From: a virus
Direction: 5' to 3' (one strand)
Virus genome (UHGV): UHGV-0162284
DNA: 18,322 nucleotides
Part shown: piece by piece, positions 2,745 to 11,125 of the stretch
Numbering within the stretch: position 1 is the stretch's first letter
Layout: the number at the start of each line of letters is the position of its first letter
The notes under the pieces: model-generated
The model's database searches: none
Told to the model about the DNA's origin: nothing
The model's input: only the letters and a program-made list of their open reading frames with translations
Made by a program: the position numbers and the translations under genes

Positions 2745-3237
2745 ACGCTGCCTTGTCGGGGCCGTGCTGGCTATTGCTGCCACGCTGCCGGGTTTTCAGC
2801 AGCTTCACACCTCCGTGGAGGGGCTGAAACTGATTGCTGATTACGAAGGCTGTCGTCTGCAGCCGTATCAGTGTAGCGCGGGTGTCTGGACCGACGGCAT
2901 TGGTAATACGTCGGGCGTCATTCCCGGCAAAACCATTACGGAGCGACAGGCAGCAGAAGGGCTGATCTCCAACGTGCTGCGTGTGGAGCGGGCGCTGGAA
3001 AGGTGTGTGAAGCAACAGCCGCCGCAGAAGGTGTATGACGCTGCGGTGTCGTTTGCCTTCAACGTGGGAACGGGCAATGCCTGCAGTTCCACACTGGTGA
3101 AATTACTCAATCAGCGGCGCTGGGCGGATGCGTGCCGACAGTTGCCGCGCTGGGTTTATGTGAAAGGTGTTTTTAATCAGGGGCTGGATAACCGCCGTGC
3201 GCGGGAGATGGCCTGGTGCTTACAGGGAGCAAACTGA
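2725..3237 (+). CDS. SAR endolysin, T4-lysozyme-like (GH24) muramidase
   Basis: 170-aa ORF with GGAGGA RBS; weakly hydrophobic Ala/Gly-rich N-terminal segment (CLVGAVLAIAATL) typical of signal-anchor-release domains; E41...T56 catalytic-region motif (ADYEGCRLQPYQCSAGVWTDGIGNT) resembling P21 R / P1 Lyz; Cys at 9, 43 and 50. Confidence 0.82.
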   Translation: MNPSIVKRCLVGAVLAIAATLPGFQQLHTSVEGLKLIADYEGCRLQPYQCSAGVWTDGIGNTSGVIPGKTITERQAAEGLISNVLRVERALERCVKQQPPQKVYDAAVSFAFNVGTGNACSSTLVKLLNQRRWADACRQLPRWVYVKGVFNQGLDNRRAREMAWCLQGAN

Positions 3238-3238
3238 A

Positions 3239-3616
3239 ATGAAAAAGAAAGTAATCAGCGGGCTGTTTCTGATGTTATGGATGGCGCTGTTGATCGCAGC
3301 AATGGTGTATCCACAGGGGATTTTTCCGGTACTGGCAGCGTCCGGTGTCTGGGTAGCCTGTCTGCTGACATGGGCGGTAATTCCGGTAGCACTGGCTGCG
3401 TTAATTAAGAACGGCCCGCTCTGGCAGGAGTTGAGGGCATCTTTGCTAAAGACCATTACCCGAAAAGAAAACGTATTTATCAGCTGGGTGATGCGATTGC
3501 TGATTGTCGTAAGTTTCGCCTGGACGGGGTGGGCTATTACCCTGGTCTTTTATCTGCTGACCGTTATTGCCTTCTGGATGATCCGTAATCAGATTGCGCA
3601 ACAGGTAGCAGCATGA
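3239..3616 (+). CDS. lysA: LysA-like membrane protein (lysis timing accessory)
   Basis: Track ORF 3167..3616; preferred ATG 3239 (MKKKVISG) two nt after the endolysin stop; 125 aa with about four hydrophobic helices; position matches P2 lysA. Confidence 0.65.
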   Translation: MKKKVISGLFLMLWMALLIAAMVYPQGIFPVLAASGVWVACLLTWAVIPVALAALIKNGPLWQELRASLLKTITRKENVFISWVMRLLIVVSFAWTGWAITLVFYLLTVIAFWMIRNQIAQQVAA

Positions 3617-6905: not shown

Positions 6906-7503
6906 TCTGCTGCCACCGGGTTCAACACCACTGGAGCGCCGACTGGCGCAAACCTGCAGCGGGATTTCTGATCTGCAGGTGCCGCTGCGTGACTTGTGGA
7001 ATCCGGCAACCTGTCCGGTCAGTTTCCTGCCTTATCTCGCCTGGGCGTTCTCTGTAGATCGCTGGGACGAGGGCTGGACAGAAAGCGTCAAACGCCAGGT
7101 GGTGAAGGATGCTTTTTATATTCATCAACATAAAGGGACCACCAGTGCCGTGCGGCGGGTGGTGGAGCCGTTCGGCTTTCTGATCCGCATTATTGAGTGG
7201 TGGCAGACCGGAGAGGCACCGGGCACGTTTCGCCTGGATATCGGCGTGCAGGACCAGGGCATCACTGAAGATACCTATCTGGAACTTGAGCGGCTGATAA
7301 GCGATGCCAAACCATGTAGCCGTCACATGATCGGCATGTCCATCAATCTGCAGACCAGCGGCCCGCATTGGGTGGGAGCCGCCAGCTATCTTGGCGAAGA
7401 AATCACGATCTATCCGTATATCAACGAAACGATTATTTCCGGTGGCACCGCGCATGAAGGCGGGGCGGTCCATGTTATTGACACAATGAGAGTGAATCCA
7501 TGA
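6898..7503 (+). CDS. I: Baseplate/tail protein (P2 gpI family)
   Basis: 201 aa; ELWNP..TCP...LPYLAWAFSVDRWDE and GTFRLDIGV motifs match P2 gpI; overlaps the J stop and the H start. Confidence 0.9.
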   Translation: MNSLLPPGSTPLERRLAQTCSGISDLQVPLRDLWNPATCPVSFLPYLAWAFSVDRWDEGWTESVKRQVVKDAFYIHQHKGTTSAVRRVVEPFGFLIRIIEWWQTGEAPGTFRLDIGVQDQGITEDTYLELERLISDAKPCSRHMIGMSINLQTSGPHWVGAASYLGEEITIYPYINETIISGGTAHEGGAVHVIDTMRVNP

Positions 7504-9182
7504 GCACAAAATTTTATACCCTGCTGACGGATATTGGCGCGGCGAAACTTGCCAGCGCCGCCGCGCTCGGTGTGCCGCTAAAAATTACCCATATGGCGGT
7601 GGGCGATGGCGGCGGAGTATTGCCAACGCCGGACGCAAAGCAGACGGCACTGGTAAATGAGAAACGCCGGGCTGCGCTGAATATGCTTTATATCGACCCG
7701 CAGAACAGCAGCCAGATTATTGCTGAACAGGTGATCCCTGAAAACGAGGGCGGTTGGTGGATACGTGAAGTGGGCCTGTTTGATGAGTCCGGGGCATTGA
7801 TTGCCGTGGGCAACTGCCCGGAAAGCTATAAGCCGCAACTGGCTGAAGGCAGCGGGCGCACCCAGACCGTGCGCATGGTGCTGATTACCAGCAGTACGGA
7901 CAATATCACCCTGAAAATCGACCCTGCCGTTGTGCTGGCAACCCGCAAGTATGTCGATGACAAGGCACTGGAGCTGAAGGTGTACGTGGATGACCAGATG
8001 GCAAAACATCTTGCCGCACTGGACCCGCATTCGCAGTATGCACCCAAAGAAAGTCCGACGTTTACCGGAACCCCCAAAGCGCCAACGCCAGCGGCGGGGA
8101 ATAATACCACGCAGCTTGCGACCACCGCATTTGTTCAGGCGGCACTGACGGCTCTTATTAATGGTGCGCCAGCCACGCTTGACACGCTAAAAGAAATAGC
8201 CGTAGCCATTAACAATGATCCGAAATTCAGTACCACCATTAACAATGCGCTGGCACTGAAAGCGCCGCTGTCGAGTCCGGCACTCACCGGAACGCCAACA
8301 GCCCCCACGGCGGCGCAGTCGGTCAACAATACACAGATTGCCACTACGGCTTTTGTGAAATCGGCGATTGCGGCAATGGTGGGTTCTGCACCTGCGGCAC
8401 TGGATACACTGAACGAACTAGCGGCGGCGCTGGGGAATGACCCGAACTTTGCCACGACAATGCTTAATGCACTGGCAGGTAAACAACCGCTGGACAATAC
8501 GCTGACTAATTTGAGTGGAAAGGATGTTGCTGGTCTTCTCGCATACCTTGGTTTGGGAGAAGGTTCATTTGGGTTCAGAAATCTGGTTGCCTTCACAACG
8601 GCTGGAGTAACAAACTGGACTGTTCCTGAAGAGTTGCGCAAAGGAAGAAAATGTTACGTCAAAGTTATTGGTGGCGGTGCGTCAGGAGGGATAGGTTCAA
8701 CAACCGCTTCAGCCGTTACATGTGGCGGAGGAGGTGGTGGGGGCGGAGTTGCTGAGGGGCTGGTAGATTTAACTGGTATAAACAGTGTTTCGATTACGGT
8801 TGGTGCCGGTGGTGCGCCTGTGTCTGGTATTTCTGTAAACGGTAAAAATGGTGGCTCGAGCAGTTTCGGGACTTACATGTCAGCTTCCGGAGGCTATAGC
8901 GGAGGCCAGCCTTCCGGAGGGTTAGGCGCAGTTGGTGTCGGGGGAACAATTAATACATCGCTTGGGCCAGGTTCTCCAGGTTCCATTGCTTCTGCCGCAT
9001 CGGGAGCTGGTAATGGTGGTTCTGGTGGTGGCCCCGGAGGAGCAGGTTCATTCAGAGATACAGCTAACGGAAAAGCGGTATCAGCAGTTGGGCCTGGAGG
9101 TGGCGGTGCTGGATTATGTCCTAATTCATCAACGGGTCAGTCGGGTGCCGGAGCAGATGGCGCAGTTTATATTTACTGGTGA
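7500..9182 (+). CDS. H: Tail fibre protein (P2 gpH family): conserved N-terminal shaft fused, in the present orientation, to a glycine-rich C-terminal tip
   Basis: 560 aa; N-terminus (MSTKFYTLLTDIGAAKLASAA...MAVGDGGG...ESYKPQLAEGSGR) and NDPNFATTMLNALAGKQP match P2 gpH; similarity ends at LGLGEGS, where the crossover site lies; the ~190-aa C-terminus is Gly/Ser-rich with a GGGGGGGG run. Confidence 0.9.
   Translation: MSTKFYTLLTDIGAAKLASAAALGVPLKITHMAVGDGGGVLPTPDAKQTALVNEKRRAALNMLYIDPQNSSQIIAEQVIPENEGGWWIREVGLFDESGALIAVGNCPESYKPQLAEGSGRTQTVRMVLITSSTDNITLKIDPAVVLATRKYVDDKALELKVYVDDQMAKHLAALDPHSQYAPKESPTFTGTPKAPTPAAGNNTTQLATTAFVQAALTALINGAPATLDTLKEIAVAINNDPKFSTTINNALALKAPLSSPALTGTPTAPTAAQSVNNTQIATTAFVKSAIAAMVGSAPAALDTLNELAAALGNDPNFATTMLNALAGKQPLDNTLTNLSGKDVAGLLAYLGLGEGSFGFRNLVAFTTAGVTNWTVPEELRKGRKCYVKVIGGGASGGIGSTTASAVTCGGGGGGGGVAEGLVDLTGINSVSITVGAGGAPVSGISVNGKNGGSSSFGTYMSASGGYSGGQPSGGLGAVGVGGTINTSLGPGSPGSIASAASGAGNGGSGGGPGGAGSFRDTANGKAVSAVGPGGGGAGLCPNSSTGQSGAGADGAVYIYW
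8536..8561 (+). repeat. Left recombination site of the invertible segment (gix/hix-like 26-bp imperfect palindrome)
   Basis: TTCTCGCATACC-TT-GGTTTGGGAGAA inside H (codes ...AYLGLGE); matches the reverse complement of 10336..10361 at 19 of 26 positions, with the same central TT. Confidence 0.65.
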
Positions 9183-9189
9183 GGTTCAT

Positions 9190-9360
9190 ATGTGGGCAAG
9201 AATTGAAGAAAATAAAGTAGAAGAGATAACGGAAATTAATCCTGAAGGAAGATTCCATCCATCATTAATATGGAAAGAATGCCCTGCTGACACACAGCAG
9301 GGGGATTTATATATTGATGGTGAGTTTATTGTGCAGTCTCCGGCAGTTCAGGCCAGATAA
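9190..9360 (+). CDS. Small hypothetical protein (57 aa) coupled to H; candidate minimal chaperone/accessory for the Gly-rich tip, or a remnant
   Basis: ATG 9190 lies 8 nt after the H stop behind GGTGAGG; clearly AT-richer than the flanks by eye; the track's 142-aa ORF 8932..9360 is an in-frame extension overlapping H and is not favoured. No family recognised by eye. Confidence 0.3.
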   Translation: MWARIEENKVEEITEINPEGRFHPSLIWKECPADTQQGDLYIDGEFIVQSPAVQAR

Positions 9361-9934
9361 CATCCGGCGCGGTGCTGGTATCTGTTGCCGTCACCGCGTC
9401 AATGTAATCCAGCACAGCGTTAAGTCTGGTTGTTTCTGCCTGCGTCAGTTTACGTCCGGCCTGCAATTTCAGTTGAATCAGACTGATGGAAGCCATTGCT
9501 GCATCAATCAGTGACTGGCGCTGTGCTTCTGCCGCTTCTACTGCGGCACCGTGTTGTGCCTCAGTATCTGTCACCCATTTTTCACCATCCCATTTATCGT
9601 GTGGCGTTAACGGGGCGATAGTGGTTGTATTTTCGGGATAGTCGCCTAGTGCTGTGATTTCTTTGGCATCTCCCGTTTCGGTGTTATAGACGATTTCACC
9701 GCGATGGTCTGACACATATTCCCATGATTTTAAATCCACAGAACGGCAAATTGTATAACCAGCCTTAGATGTAACAGGAGCGTCTAAACAGGAATATGCT
9801 GGAATACCGACACCCACTGCAAGATATTCAGTTGATGCAGAAATATATTCCCGCGTCTCACCATCATAGTTATAGACGGTAATATTCCCCGCCTTCGTGG
9901 CAATAAACTCGCTATTTAATACGGCGTTATCCAT
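9326..9934 (-). CDS. Tail fibre assembly chaperone (Tfa / Mu U / P2 gpG-like), paired with the alternative fibre tip
   Basis: 202 aa on the minus strand; C-terminal region (LIQLKLQAGRKLTQAE...RLNAVLDYIDAV...APDVIWPELP) is typical of Caudovirales tail-fibre assembly proteins; its start overlaps the stop of the upstream minus-strand cassette (TAATG). Confidence 0.78.
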   Translation of the reverse strand: MDNAVLNSEFIATKAGNITVYNYDGETREYISASTEYLAVGVGIPAYSCLDAPVTSKAGYTICRSVDLKSWEYVSDHRGEIVYNTETGDAKEITALGDYPENTTTIAPLTPHDKWDGEKWVTDTEAQHGAAVEAAEAQRQSLIDAAMASISLIQLKLQAGRKLTQAETTRLNAVLDYIDAVTATDTSTAPDVIWPELPETAQ

Positions 9935-10389
9935 TATGCAGCCCTCACGATAAAGTTAAATGCAATATTTCGTGGACGGGTTTCACTCCCGCCATATGAT
10001 GATGTAAATCCCGAATATGCCCGGTGTCCCGCATCCGTCGTATTAGCCCAGGAAGGACCGCTAGAAGTATAGATGACCCCATTGTAATCATGGCCGTGTG
10101 CCTCAATGCTCCCGTCCTGCGCAGACAGGAGAGTCCGTCCTGAATCAATTCCTCTTCCATCATCCCACCCACGAATGAATTCGCCGCGTAAATCTGGCAA
10201 TTTATTTGTCGGATAAACTTTTGCCAGTTCCGGATACTCTTCGGCAGAAAAAGCTGCACCGTTGCATTTCAGCCAGCCTGTTGGCGGTGTGACTGAAGGC
10301 CACGGAACAGGTACGCCAACAGGCAATGCTGAGCCTTCTCCTAAACCAACGTTTAAGAAAATGCAGATGTAACGGCTAACTGGCATCAT
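9934..10389 (-). CDS. Alternative tail-fibre C-terminal cassette (Sv'-like, tail-collar-type receptor-binding region); promoterless until inversion fuses it to H
   Basis: Minus-strand ORF carries GLGEGS at residues 15-20, the same junction peptide as H at the left site; downstream PVPWP...GWLKCNGAAFS..YPELAKVYP...LPDLRGEFIRGWDDGRG matches the phage tail-collar pattern. The first 14 codons of the track ORF are probably not translated in vivo. Confidence 0.72.
   Translation of the reverse strand: MMPVSRYICIFLNVGLGEGSALPVGVPVPWPSVTPPTGWLKCNGAAFSAEEYPELAKVYPTNKLPDLRGEFIRGWDDGRGIDSGRTLLSAQDGSIEAHGHDYNGVIYTSSGPSWANTTDAGHRAYSGFTSSYGGSETRPRNIAFNFIVRAA
10336..10361 (-). repeat. Right recombination site of the invertible segment (gix/hix-like)
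   Basis: Plus strand TTCTCCTAAACCAACGTTTAAGAAAA; its reverse complement TTTTCTTAAACG-TT-GGTTTAGGAGAA aligns with the left site; lies ~50 bp upstream of the invertase start. Confidence 0.65.
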
Positions 10390-10410
10390 CTCCGGTTTTT
10401 ATTCAGGGGG

Positions 10411-10983
10411 ATGATCATGCTTATTGGCTATGTACGCGTGTCAACAAATGACCAGAACACCGATTTGCAACGTAATGCACTGAACTGCGCGGGATGTGAG
10501 CGGATTTTTGAGGATAAAATCAGTGGCACTAAGTCCGACAGACCGGGGCTGAAAAAACTGCTCAGGACACTATCGGCAGGAGACACGCTGGTTGTCTGGA
10601 AGCTGGACAGGTTGGGGCGCAGTATGCGGCATCTTGTTACGCTGATAGAAGAGTTACGCCAGCGTGGCGTGAATTTCCGAAGCCTGACTGACAGTATTGA
10701 TACCAGCACCCCAATGGGCCGTTTCTTTTTTCATGTCATGGGGGCTCTGGCTGAAATGGAACGCGAACTGATAGTTGAACGTACCAGGGCGGGGCTGGCT
10801 GCAGCTCGTGTTAAAGGCAGAGTAGGTGGACGCCGTCCTAAGTTGACCAGCGAACAGTGGGCACAGATTGGGCGTTTACTCGAGGCTGGAGAATCAAGAC
10901 AGCGTATTGCACTGATTTTTGATGTAGGCGTTTCTACCATTTATAGAAAATTTCTGGCCAATAAGAGCATTGAATCCCCCTGA
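10411..10983 (+). CDS. Serine recombinase, DNA invertase (Hin/Gin/Cin/Pin family)
   Basis: 190 aa; N-terminal catalytic motif IGYVRVSTNDQ with the active-site Ser, then GDTLVVWKLDRLGRS, and a C-terminal HTH (QRIALIFDVGVSTIYRKF); length and layout are those of Hin/Gin. True start may be ATG 10417. Confidence 0.95.
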   Translation: MIMLIGYVRVSTNDQNTDLQRNALNCAGCERIFEDKISGTKSDRPGLKKLLRTLSAGDTLVVWKLDRLGRSMRHLVTLIEELRQRGVNFRSLTDSIDTSTPMGRFFFHVMGALAEMERELIVERTRAGLAAARVKGRVGGRRPKLTSEQWAQIGRLLEAGESRQRIALIFDVGVSTIYRKFLANKSIESP

Positions 10984-11031
10984 ATCAGCATTATTTTGAT
11001 TATCCCTGCAAGTAGACAAATACCGTCATTT

Positions 11032-11049
11032 TGTGTGAATAACGGTACA
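11032..11049 (+). promoter_or_regulatory. Candidate Ogr-dependent late-promoter element (TGT-N12-ACA) for the FI-FII-E-T-U-D operon
   Basis: TGT GTGAATAACGGT ACA in the 142-bp gap upstream of FI, centred ~85 bp before the FI ATG; equivalent position to P2 P_F. Confidence 0.45.
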
Positions 11050-11125
11050 ACTGCGCTTAGCTGTTTGTCAGGCACAATCACTTCAACATAGGGCGAAGCC
11101 TAATCCAATCAGGAGGTTCGCCACT

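Follow-up and report, generated by a model that had tools for sequence, protein, structure and literature searches.

A probable Din-family inversion switch for phage host range in the tail-fiber locus of an Escherichia coli P2-like prophage

Gene content of the tail-fiber locus and its invertible segment

We analyzed the tail-fiber locus in an 18,322-nucleotide stretch of viral DNA, UHGV virus genome UHGV-0162284 (the whole of this stretch is called the window below), which represents the late region of an Escherichia coli P2-like prophage and matches the E. coli SCU-306 chromosome at 99.9% identity over positions 7500-11100. An earlier note, made from the letters alone, had described at this locus a Gin/Hin-type invertase and an invertible host-range segment grafted into the tail-fiber genes in place of gene G. 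The segment spans 1802 bp from center to center (8548..10349), is bounded by a crossover site on each side, and begins inside the tail-fiber gene H.

In its present form, H (7500-9182) encodes a fiber protein of 560 amino acids with a P2-type N-terminal fiber domain and a C-terminal glycine-rich domain. The constant 5' part of the gene, Hc (7500..8547, plus strand; amino acids 1-349), matches the Pfam Phage_tail_fib N-terminal family (8.5e-65), and the protein is 54% identical to P2 H over amino acids 1-332, with similarity stopping about 15 codons ahead of the left crossover site. The variable tip now fused to H (tip 1; 8562..9182, plus strand) is glycine-rich and matches Pfam Gly_rich_2 (4.7e-10, amino acids 366-560). 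A small open reading frame (ORF) of 56 amino acids (9190..9360, plus strand) starts 8 nucleotides past the H stop codon and is preceded by the Shine-Dalgarno sequence GGTGAGG. The other half of the segment is read from the minus strand and holds variable tip 2, a collar-domain cassette that is now silent (StfE-like; 9934..10335; Pfam Collar, 1.1e-14), followed by the gene for the tail-fiber assembly protein of this tip (TfaE-like and G-type; 9326..9934; Pfam Caudo_TAP, 3.5e-32; phrog_105, 3e-96). The similarity of this assembly protein to P2 G is weak and limited to the C-terminal part. A leader with an ATG outside the segment (10362..10389, minus strand) opens the minus-strand ORF 10389-9934, which runs across the right crossover site into the silent tip.

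Both crossover sites encode the junction peptide GLGEGS in the fusion frame, as AYLGLGEGSF in H and as NVGLGEGSAL in the minus-strand ORF, just as the earlier note had described. The in-frame swap of the fiber tip predicted from this peptide was borne out when we inverted the segment in silico between 8548 and 10349, which yielded an in-frame H' of 487 amino acids compared with the 560-amino-acid fiber of the present orientation. After this inversion, the assembly-protein gene begins at the stop codon of H'. The locus thus has the defining arrangement of a host-range segment, in which the 3' end of a fiber gene is exchanged in frame and the matching assembly gene is moved along with it.

The small ORF behind the glycine-rich tip had no family match in Pfam, PHROGs, or NCBIfam, and none of the five locus proteins matched a specific NCBIfam equivalog. 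The sequence of the ORF (MWARIE..RFHPSL.W.EC) is conserved in Yersinia phage MLG42, where it comes immediately behind a Gly_rich_2 tip, and in Pseudomonas phage Amjad_SA. The 56-amino-acid ORF is probably the partner of the glycine-rich tip and might serve in the assembly of such tips. The RefSeq version of this ORF is longer, at 67 amino acids, and is labeled hypothetical. Across the locus, the only RefSeq labels are 'phage tail protein', 'hypothetical protein', and 'recombinase family protein'.

Crossover sites, invertase, and putative enhancer region

The left 26-bp crossover site (TTCTCGCATACCTTGGTTTGGGAGAA; 8536..8561) is pix/gix-like and has the central dinucleotide TT at 8548-8549, and the right site (TTCTCCTAAACCAACGTTTAAGAAAA; 10336..10361) has AA at 10348-10349. 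We searched for such sites with the pattern TTNTCNNAAACCNNGGTTTNNGANAA (gix/cix/pix; 18 specified positions), which was checked on independently annotated loci. Allowing up to 3 mismatches, the whole 18.3-kb window contained two matches, which were the two sites bounding the segment, with 0.01 expected by chance; none of 200 shuffled windows yielded two matches. At a threshold of at least 15/18, the pattern found precisely two sites in each of the reference loci of P1, Mu, K-12 e14, and Fels-2. In P1 the site centers fall on the crossover points annotated as cixL and cixR, those of Mu center on both G-segment boundaries, those of e14 coincide with the published K-12 repeats, and the Fels-2 pair lies at the expected places. 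Both sites in the window score 17/18, equal to or above functional cix and gix sites. No match occurs in the window beside the inverted 26-bp sites proposed in the earlier note, and the pattern that they fit also recovers known crossover sites of P1, Mu, and e14.

Aligned in inverted orientation, the two sites, which lie where the earlier note had put them, are identical at 20 of 26 positions, rather than the 19 given there, and share the central TT. The inverted repeat reaches 32 nucleotides (8536-8567 and 10330-10361) with 78% identity between its arms. The e14 repeat TTGGTTTGGGAGAAGG (PMC12529663) is present exactly at 8548-8563 on the left, and the right site matches the e14 repeat CCTTCTCCCAAACCAA at 15/16 positions. 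With an imperfect dyad around a common 2-bp core in each of two inverted 26-bp sequences, the pair has the form of Din-family sites. We also looked for a third crossover site that would permit multiple inversions, as in the three-repeat locus of enteropathogenic E. coli (EPEC), and found none scoring at least 15/18 in the window.

At a distance of 55 bp from the right site lies the gene for a Pin/Gin-family serine DNA invertase (10417..10983, plus strand), which encodes 188 amino acids from the RefSeq start at 10417 or 190 from 10411. The protein has the Pfam domains of a small serine recombinase, Resolvase (1.7e-52, amino acids 5-137) and HTH_7 (4.9e-15, amino acids 140-181), and matches the PHROG of DNA invertases (phrog_125, 5.7e-99). 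Its best solved relative is Mu Gin (3UJ3; 307.7 bits, E = 2e-91, 183 residues), whereas the resolvases of gamma-delta and Tn3 scored 120 and 103 bits, respectively, which places the protein on the invertase side of the family as the earlier note had proposed. Identity reaches 85.6% with K-12 PinE, 83.8% with the Fels-2 invertase, and 78% with P1 Cin. The ORF is intact and aligns with Gin from end to end, and the catalytic motifs GYVRVS and KLDRLGRS are kept.

In an alignment with the DNA-binding domain of Hin (1HCR), QISRLLE of the window stands opposite QIGRLLE, keeping the Q, R, and L of helix 1. We take these three residues to correspond to Gln151, Arg154, and Leu155 of Hin, presuming the usual chain numbering. 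These are the Hin residues that touch Fis in the invertasome (PMC3798978).

A Fis-dependent enhancer had been expected within the first ~200 bp of the invertase gene, and a region homologous to the P1 cin enhancer can be placed there. The Cin enhancer spans cin nucleotides 19-90 in the P1 annotation, and the corresponding stretch of the window, 10435..10506, is identical at 56 of 72 positions and holds candidate Fis cores near 10445/10446 and 10494. Two 15-mers of the form G-N13-C, centered at gene nucleotides 29 and 78, recur in 4-5 of the 5 invertase genes aligned. Moving the first of these by one base gives a 48-bp spacing and pyrimidine-purine (Y-R) steps at Fis-site positions (PMC4784862), so that its register, 29 or 30, is ambiguous. 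The proximal candidate core lies ~97 bp from the center of the right site, in agreement with the ~100 bp reported for the hin enhancer (PMC3798978). Because this stretch encodes the most conserved part of the invertase, its DNA similarity does not count as independent evidence. The interval 10435-10506 is therefore a putative, homology-based placement of the expected enhancer.

The homologous segment is inverted between two sister isolates

As queries against 5,426 complete E. coli genomes, we used the junctions as they stand now and those that the in silico inversion creates, and we scored a junction as covered at a coverage of at least 80%. The present left junction was covered in 7 genomes and the inverted left junction in 28, and 14 genomes covered the inverted right junction, in which the glycine-rich tip abuts the invertase gene. 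Two sister isolates from horse feces, SWYHX138.33gt and SWYHX138.261ft, carry a prophage that is ~95% identical to the window across the locus. Between these isolates, the flanks of the segment are colinear and 99.95% identical, and the segment is identical at 1848 of 1848 positions yet inverted. The inner half-sites differ from each other in a single base (GGTTTGGGAGAA versus GGTTTGAGAGAA). This base has moved along with the segment and the outer half-sites have kept their places, so that the exchange must have taken place within the 8 bp TTGGTTTG around the central TT. In the comparison of the window with the flipped isomer, the breakpoints fall at 8545-8567 and 10330-10352. Strain CEA212U likewise carries the inverted isomer, at 96-98% identity. 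These findings show that inversion really occurs at these sites in the homologous prophage of the two sister isolates, and they bear out the earlier description of the segment as invertible. The switch is presumably active in the strain of the window as well.

The best match to the inverted left junction (97%), MSB1_4I (NZ_LR898874.1), was considered as a further isomer and rejected due to a different partner cassette. In this genome, the collar tip and TfaE-like gene (97-98% nucleotide identity) occupy the expressed position, and the silent partner is a gp53-like tip with an assembly protein of 146 amino acids. The difference in partner cassette indicates cassette shuffling between segments rather than inversion.

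Several further observations concern the same family of loci. A further P2-like prophage with its own Pin-type segment is present in both horse isolates (NZ_CP091836 and NZ_CP091839, 15500-23500), and the content of this segment differs between them. Relative to the segment of the first prophage, that of the second is 99.4% identical in 261ft and 88-96% identical and partly rearranged in 33gt. This difference could reflect cassette exchange or gene conversion between the coresident prophages, or it could be an assembly artifact. In the P2-like Yersinia phage vB_YpM_MLG42 (PP599993.1, 9756-16893), the small ORF and a glycine-rich cassette that is silent lie opposite H-G, and no invertase gene precedes the sheath gene; the locus resembles a frozen leftover of the same switch.

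The glycine-rich cassette also affects annotation. At 8932-9360 (plus strand), GGN-rich coding sequence leaves a second frame open. It is in this alternative frame that RefSeq calls a 115-amino-acid 'hypothetical protein' in the flipped isomers (3088-3435, minus strand, of the loci compared), and the silent glycine-rich cassette goes unannotated there. The 115-amino-acid protein is probably an annotation artifact.

Relationship to known inversion systems and alternative explanations

In its order and parts, the module of the window is a variant of the P segment of e14 in K-12, judged by sequence and gene order. The two share the crossover repeats described above, the e14 P segment measures 1797 bp (PMC12529663) against 1802 bp in the window, and the e14 order stfP-tfaP-tfaE-stfE-pinE corresponds to the order tip, assembly gene, assembly gene, tip, and invertase in the window. 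Amino acid identity amounts to 86% for TfaE and 61% for the StfE tip, in addition to that of PinE given above. Like the minus-strand ORF of the window, K-12 stfE has its ATG outside the segment. In strain S56, an e14-like element shares the glycine-rich tip, the small ORF, and TfaE with the window at 94.5% nucleotide identity, and there the tip is joined to stfP. The window differs from e14 in that its constant part is a P2-type H within a complete P2-like prophage, not the stfP of a defective element, and in that the StfP tip and tfaP of K-12 are replaced by the glycine-rich tip and the 56-amino-acid ORF. The e14 P segment is inverted by PinE, PinQ, and PinR at the same repeats, and its inversion creates StfE2, which blocks T2 adsorption (PMC12529663).

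Among P2-like phages, Fels-2 of Salmonella (Felsduovirus) has an identical layout (J, I, H, a G-like gene, then a G-like and an H-like gene on the minus strand, the DNA invertase, and FI), with its two pattern-matching sites at corresponding places. Fels-2 carries other tip cassettes in a longer segment, with ~2.7 kb between the sites, and has the central dinucleotide TC/GA versus TT/AA in the window. Annotated tail-fiber, assembly, and DNA-invertase genes also occupy this locus in phages Cartapus, 500465-1, KP12, pro483, and others, and a 2024 preprint describes invertases and inverted neighbors in this P2 hotspot (10.1101/2024.10.15.618418). In the P2-like prophages of EPEC E2348/69, paired-end sequencing found both orientations coexisting in culture (Goldberg et al. 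2014, PMC4272514). By its layout, one EPEC locus is a simple two-repeat switch like that of the window, and the other has three repeats and four variants. The Mu G segment with Gin and the P1 C segment with Cin belong to the same mechanism class, combining a constant Sc with alternative Sv and Sv' tips and U and U' assembly genes. Like the window they have 26-bp sites, and their enhancer sits in the 5' part of the invertase gene, where the window has its putative counterpart. They differ in their backbone, in their segments of 3-4.2 kb, and in their unrelated tips, and in P1 the cin gene precedes the segment. This kind of switch, and essentially this member of it, is thus already known.

A domain search placed the ORFs of the window in P2 order: Phage_cap_P2, small terminase, Phage_GPL, Phage_tail_X, holin, lysozyme, P2_Phage_GpR, gpS, gpV, gpW, gpJ, gpI (Tail_P2_I), tail fiber, sheath, Phage_tube, gpE, tape measure, Phage_P2_GpU, Phage_GPD, and Ogr_Delta. 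The late-gene set from N to ogr is complete in this prophage and follows the order of the Peduoviridae late cluster (N M L X Y K .. R S V W J I H .. FI FII E T U D ogr). P2 itself is arranged as H, G, terminator, fun(Z), pF, and FI without an invertase, and the canonical fixed H-G pair is not found in the window, where the segment and the invertase stand in for the 3' half of H, G, and fun(Z). The invertase gene holds the slot of P2 fun(Z), between G and the F-operon promoter. The position given by the words 'in place of gene G' is thus right, but G has not been replaced outright, since a G-type Caudo_TAP protein lies inside the segment, paired with the collar tip. Because of its kinship with e14-like segments and a G+C content that is 0.44-0.52 over the segment and the invertase gene and 0.55-0.59 over the P2 backbone, the module can fairly be called grafted; the graft is not an unusual one, as Fels-2 and numerous other P2-like phages on deposit have the same J-I-H-segment-invertase-FI layout. 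Ahead of FI and behind the invertase stop codon, we read a TGT-N12-ACA element (11032..11049, plus strand) in a stretch that aligns with the P2 pF region holding the annotated activator-binding site. This element is probably the Ogr-dependent late promoter of the F operon, which would put the invertase gene at the very end of the V-operon region.

We consider it highly probable (about 90%) that the locus switches phage host range by site-specific inversion of the Din family (Gin/Cin/Pin/Hin) within the tail-fiber genes of an E. coli P2-like prophage. In the mechanism that we propose, invertase dimers would bind both 26-bp sites and, together with host Fis on the presumed enhancer near the 5' end of that gene for the invertase, form an invertasome. 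Cleavage at the central TT and a 180-degree rotation of subunits would then flip the 1802-bp segment. In the present orientation, Hc would be produced with the glycine-rich tip, followed by the 56-amino-acid ORF, and in the flipped orientation Hc would carry the collar-domain tip in frame as the shorter fiber, followed by the TfaE-like assembly protein. A lysogen population would thereby release particles of two presumed receptor specificities.

Several observations weigh against this reading. The two sites disagree at 6 of 26 positions, and position 15 of the right site, beside the center, is G and not C, as is likewise the case in e14 and other P2-like right sites. The enhancer has been placed by homology, and its candidate Fis cores have G/C-rich centers or, in one register, are without Y-R steps. 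We did not find a sigma-70-like promoter for the invertase in 10362-10416, and the promoter scan gave counts equal to the level of shuffles for both the invertase and the minus-strand ORF. Lastly, SCU-306, the sole near-identical genome, has the segment in the same orientation as the window. The last two points speak as well for the locus being a frozen relic in which all parts are present and this copy no longer inverts, for example through loss of invertase expression or enhancer function, leaving a phage with the glycine-rich tip only. Such relics exist, as in MLG42 with its silent Gly_rich_2 cassette and small ORF without an invertase and in the e14-like element of S56, in which the recombinase is frameshifted. 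We regard this explanation as improbable given an invertase ORF that is intact and aligned end to end with Gin including both catalytic motifs, two sites at least as good as functional cix and gix, and a ~95% identical prophage that is flipped between sister isolates. Moreover, Pin-type invertases act in trans on such sites, so that invertases of e14, Qin, or Rac in the host could flip the segment (PMC12529663). Recombination without any dedicated enzyme is far less credible still: although the arms form a 32-nucleotide stretch at 78% identity and the inverted repeat might be incidental, with inversion arising from RecA-dependent homologous recombination of short repeats, a repeat of this length and identity is a poor RecA substrate. 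The repeats also fit a 26-bp pattern that recovers the cix and gix sites defined by experiment along with the e14 repeats from the literature, a dedicated invertase gene lies 55 bp from them, and the exchange in the sister isolates maps to 8 bp around the site center.

A different explanation, unlikely in our view if slightly less so than a frozen relic, is that the segment serves the host too or instead, with the minus-strand ORF from 10389 making a free tip protein that masks outer-membrane receptors and blocks other phages. Its product would be StfE-like now and, after inversion, the leader joined to the glycine-rich tip, a counterpart of StfE2. The kinship with the e14 P segment, whose repeats, TfaE, and PinE are so closely matched here, the ATG outside the segment as in stfE, and the block of T2 adsorption by StfE2 all speak for such a role. 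ORFs running past the silent-side site are, however, also annotated in Mu and Fels-2 (as a GeneMark prediction and as a probable pseudogene) with no function flagged, and the open frame of the minus-strand ORF may therefore be incidental. No leftward promoter for this ORF was found near 10390-10450, the tip of K-12 StfP is unlike the tip in the window, and the P2 late-gene set is complete, so that a host-range role suffices. By analogy with e14 StfE2, one might also imagine an invertase-controlled prophage defense operating besides host-range switching, through a free tip that depends on orientation, and, separately, that the 56-amino-acid ORF is a minimal factor, so far undescribed, for the assembly of glycine-rich adhesin tips; both ideas are speculative and doubtful.

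Tail-fiber switching driven by an invertase is textbook biology in Mu, P1, and e14, and examples from P2-like phages (Fels-2) and from P2-like prophages of E. coli have already been described. As regards annotation, the locus is a reminder that the silent cassette often goes unannotated in flipped isomers. For the phage, the host-range switch means that the prophage of the window probably makes particles of two receptor specificities, and Pin-type invertases elsewhere in the host could contribute by flipping the segment in trans. The module of tips and invertase is almost unchanged between P2-like and e14-like elements, and it shows host-range modules moving between unrelated backbones.

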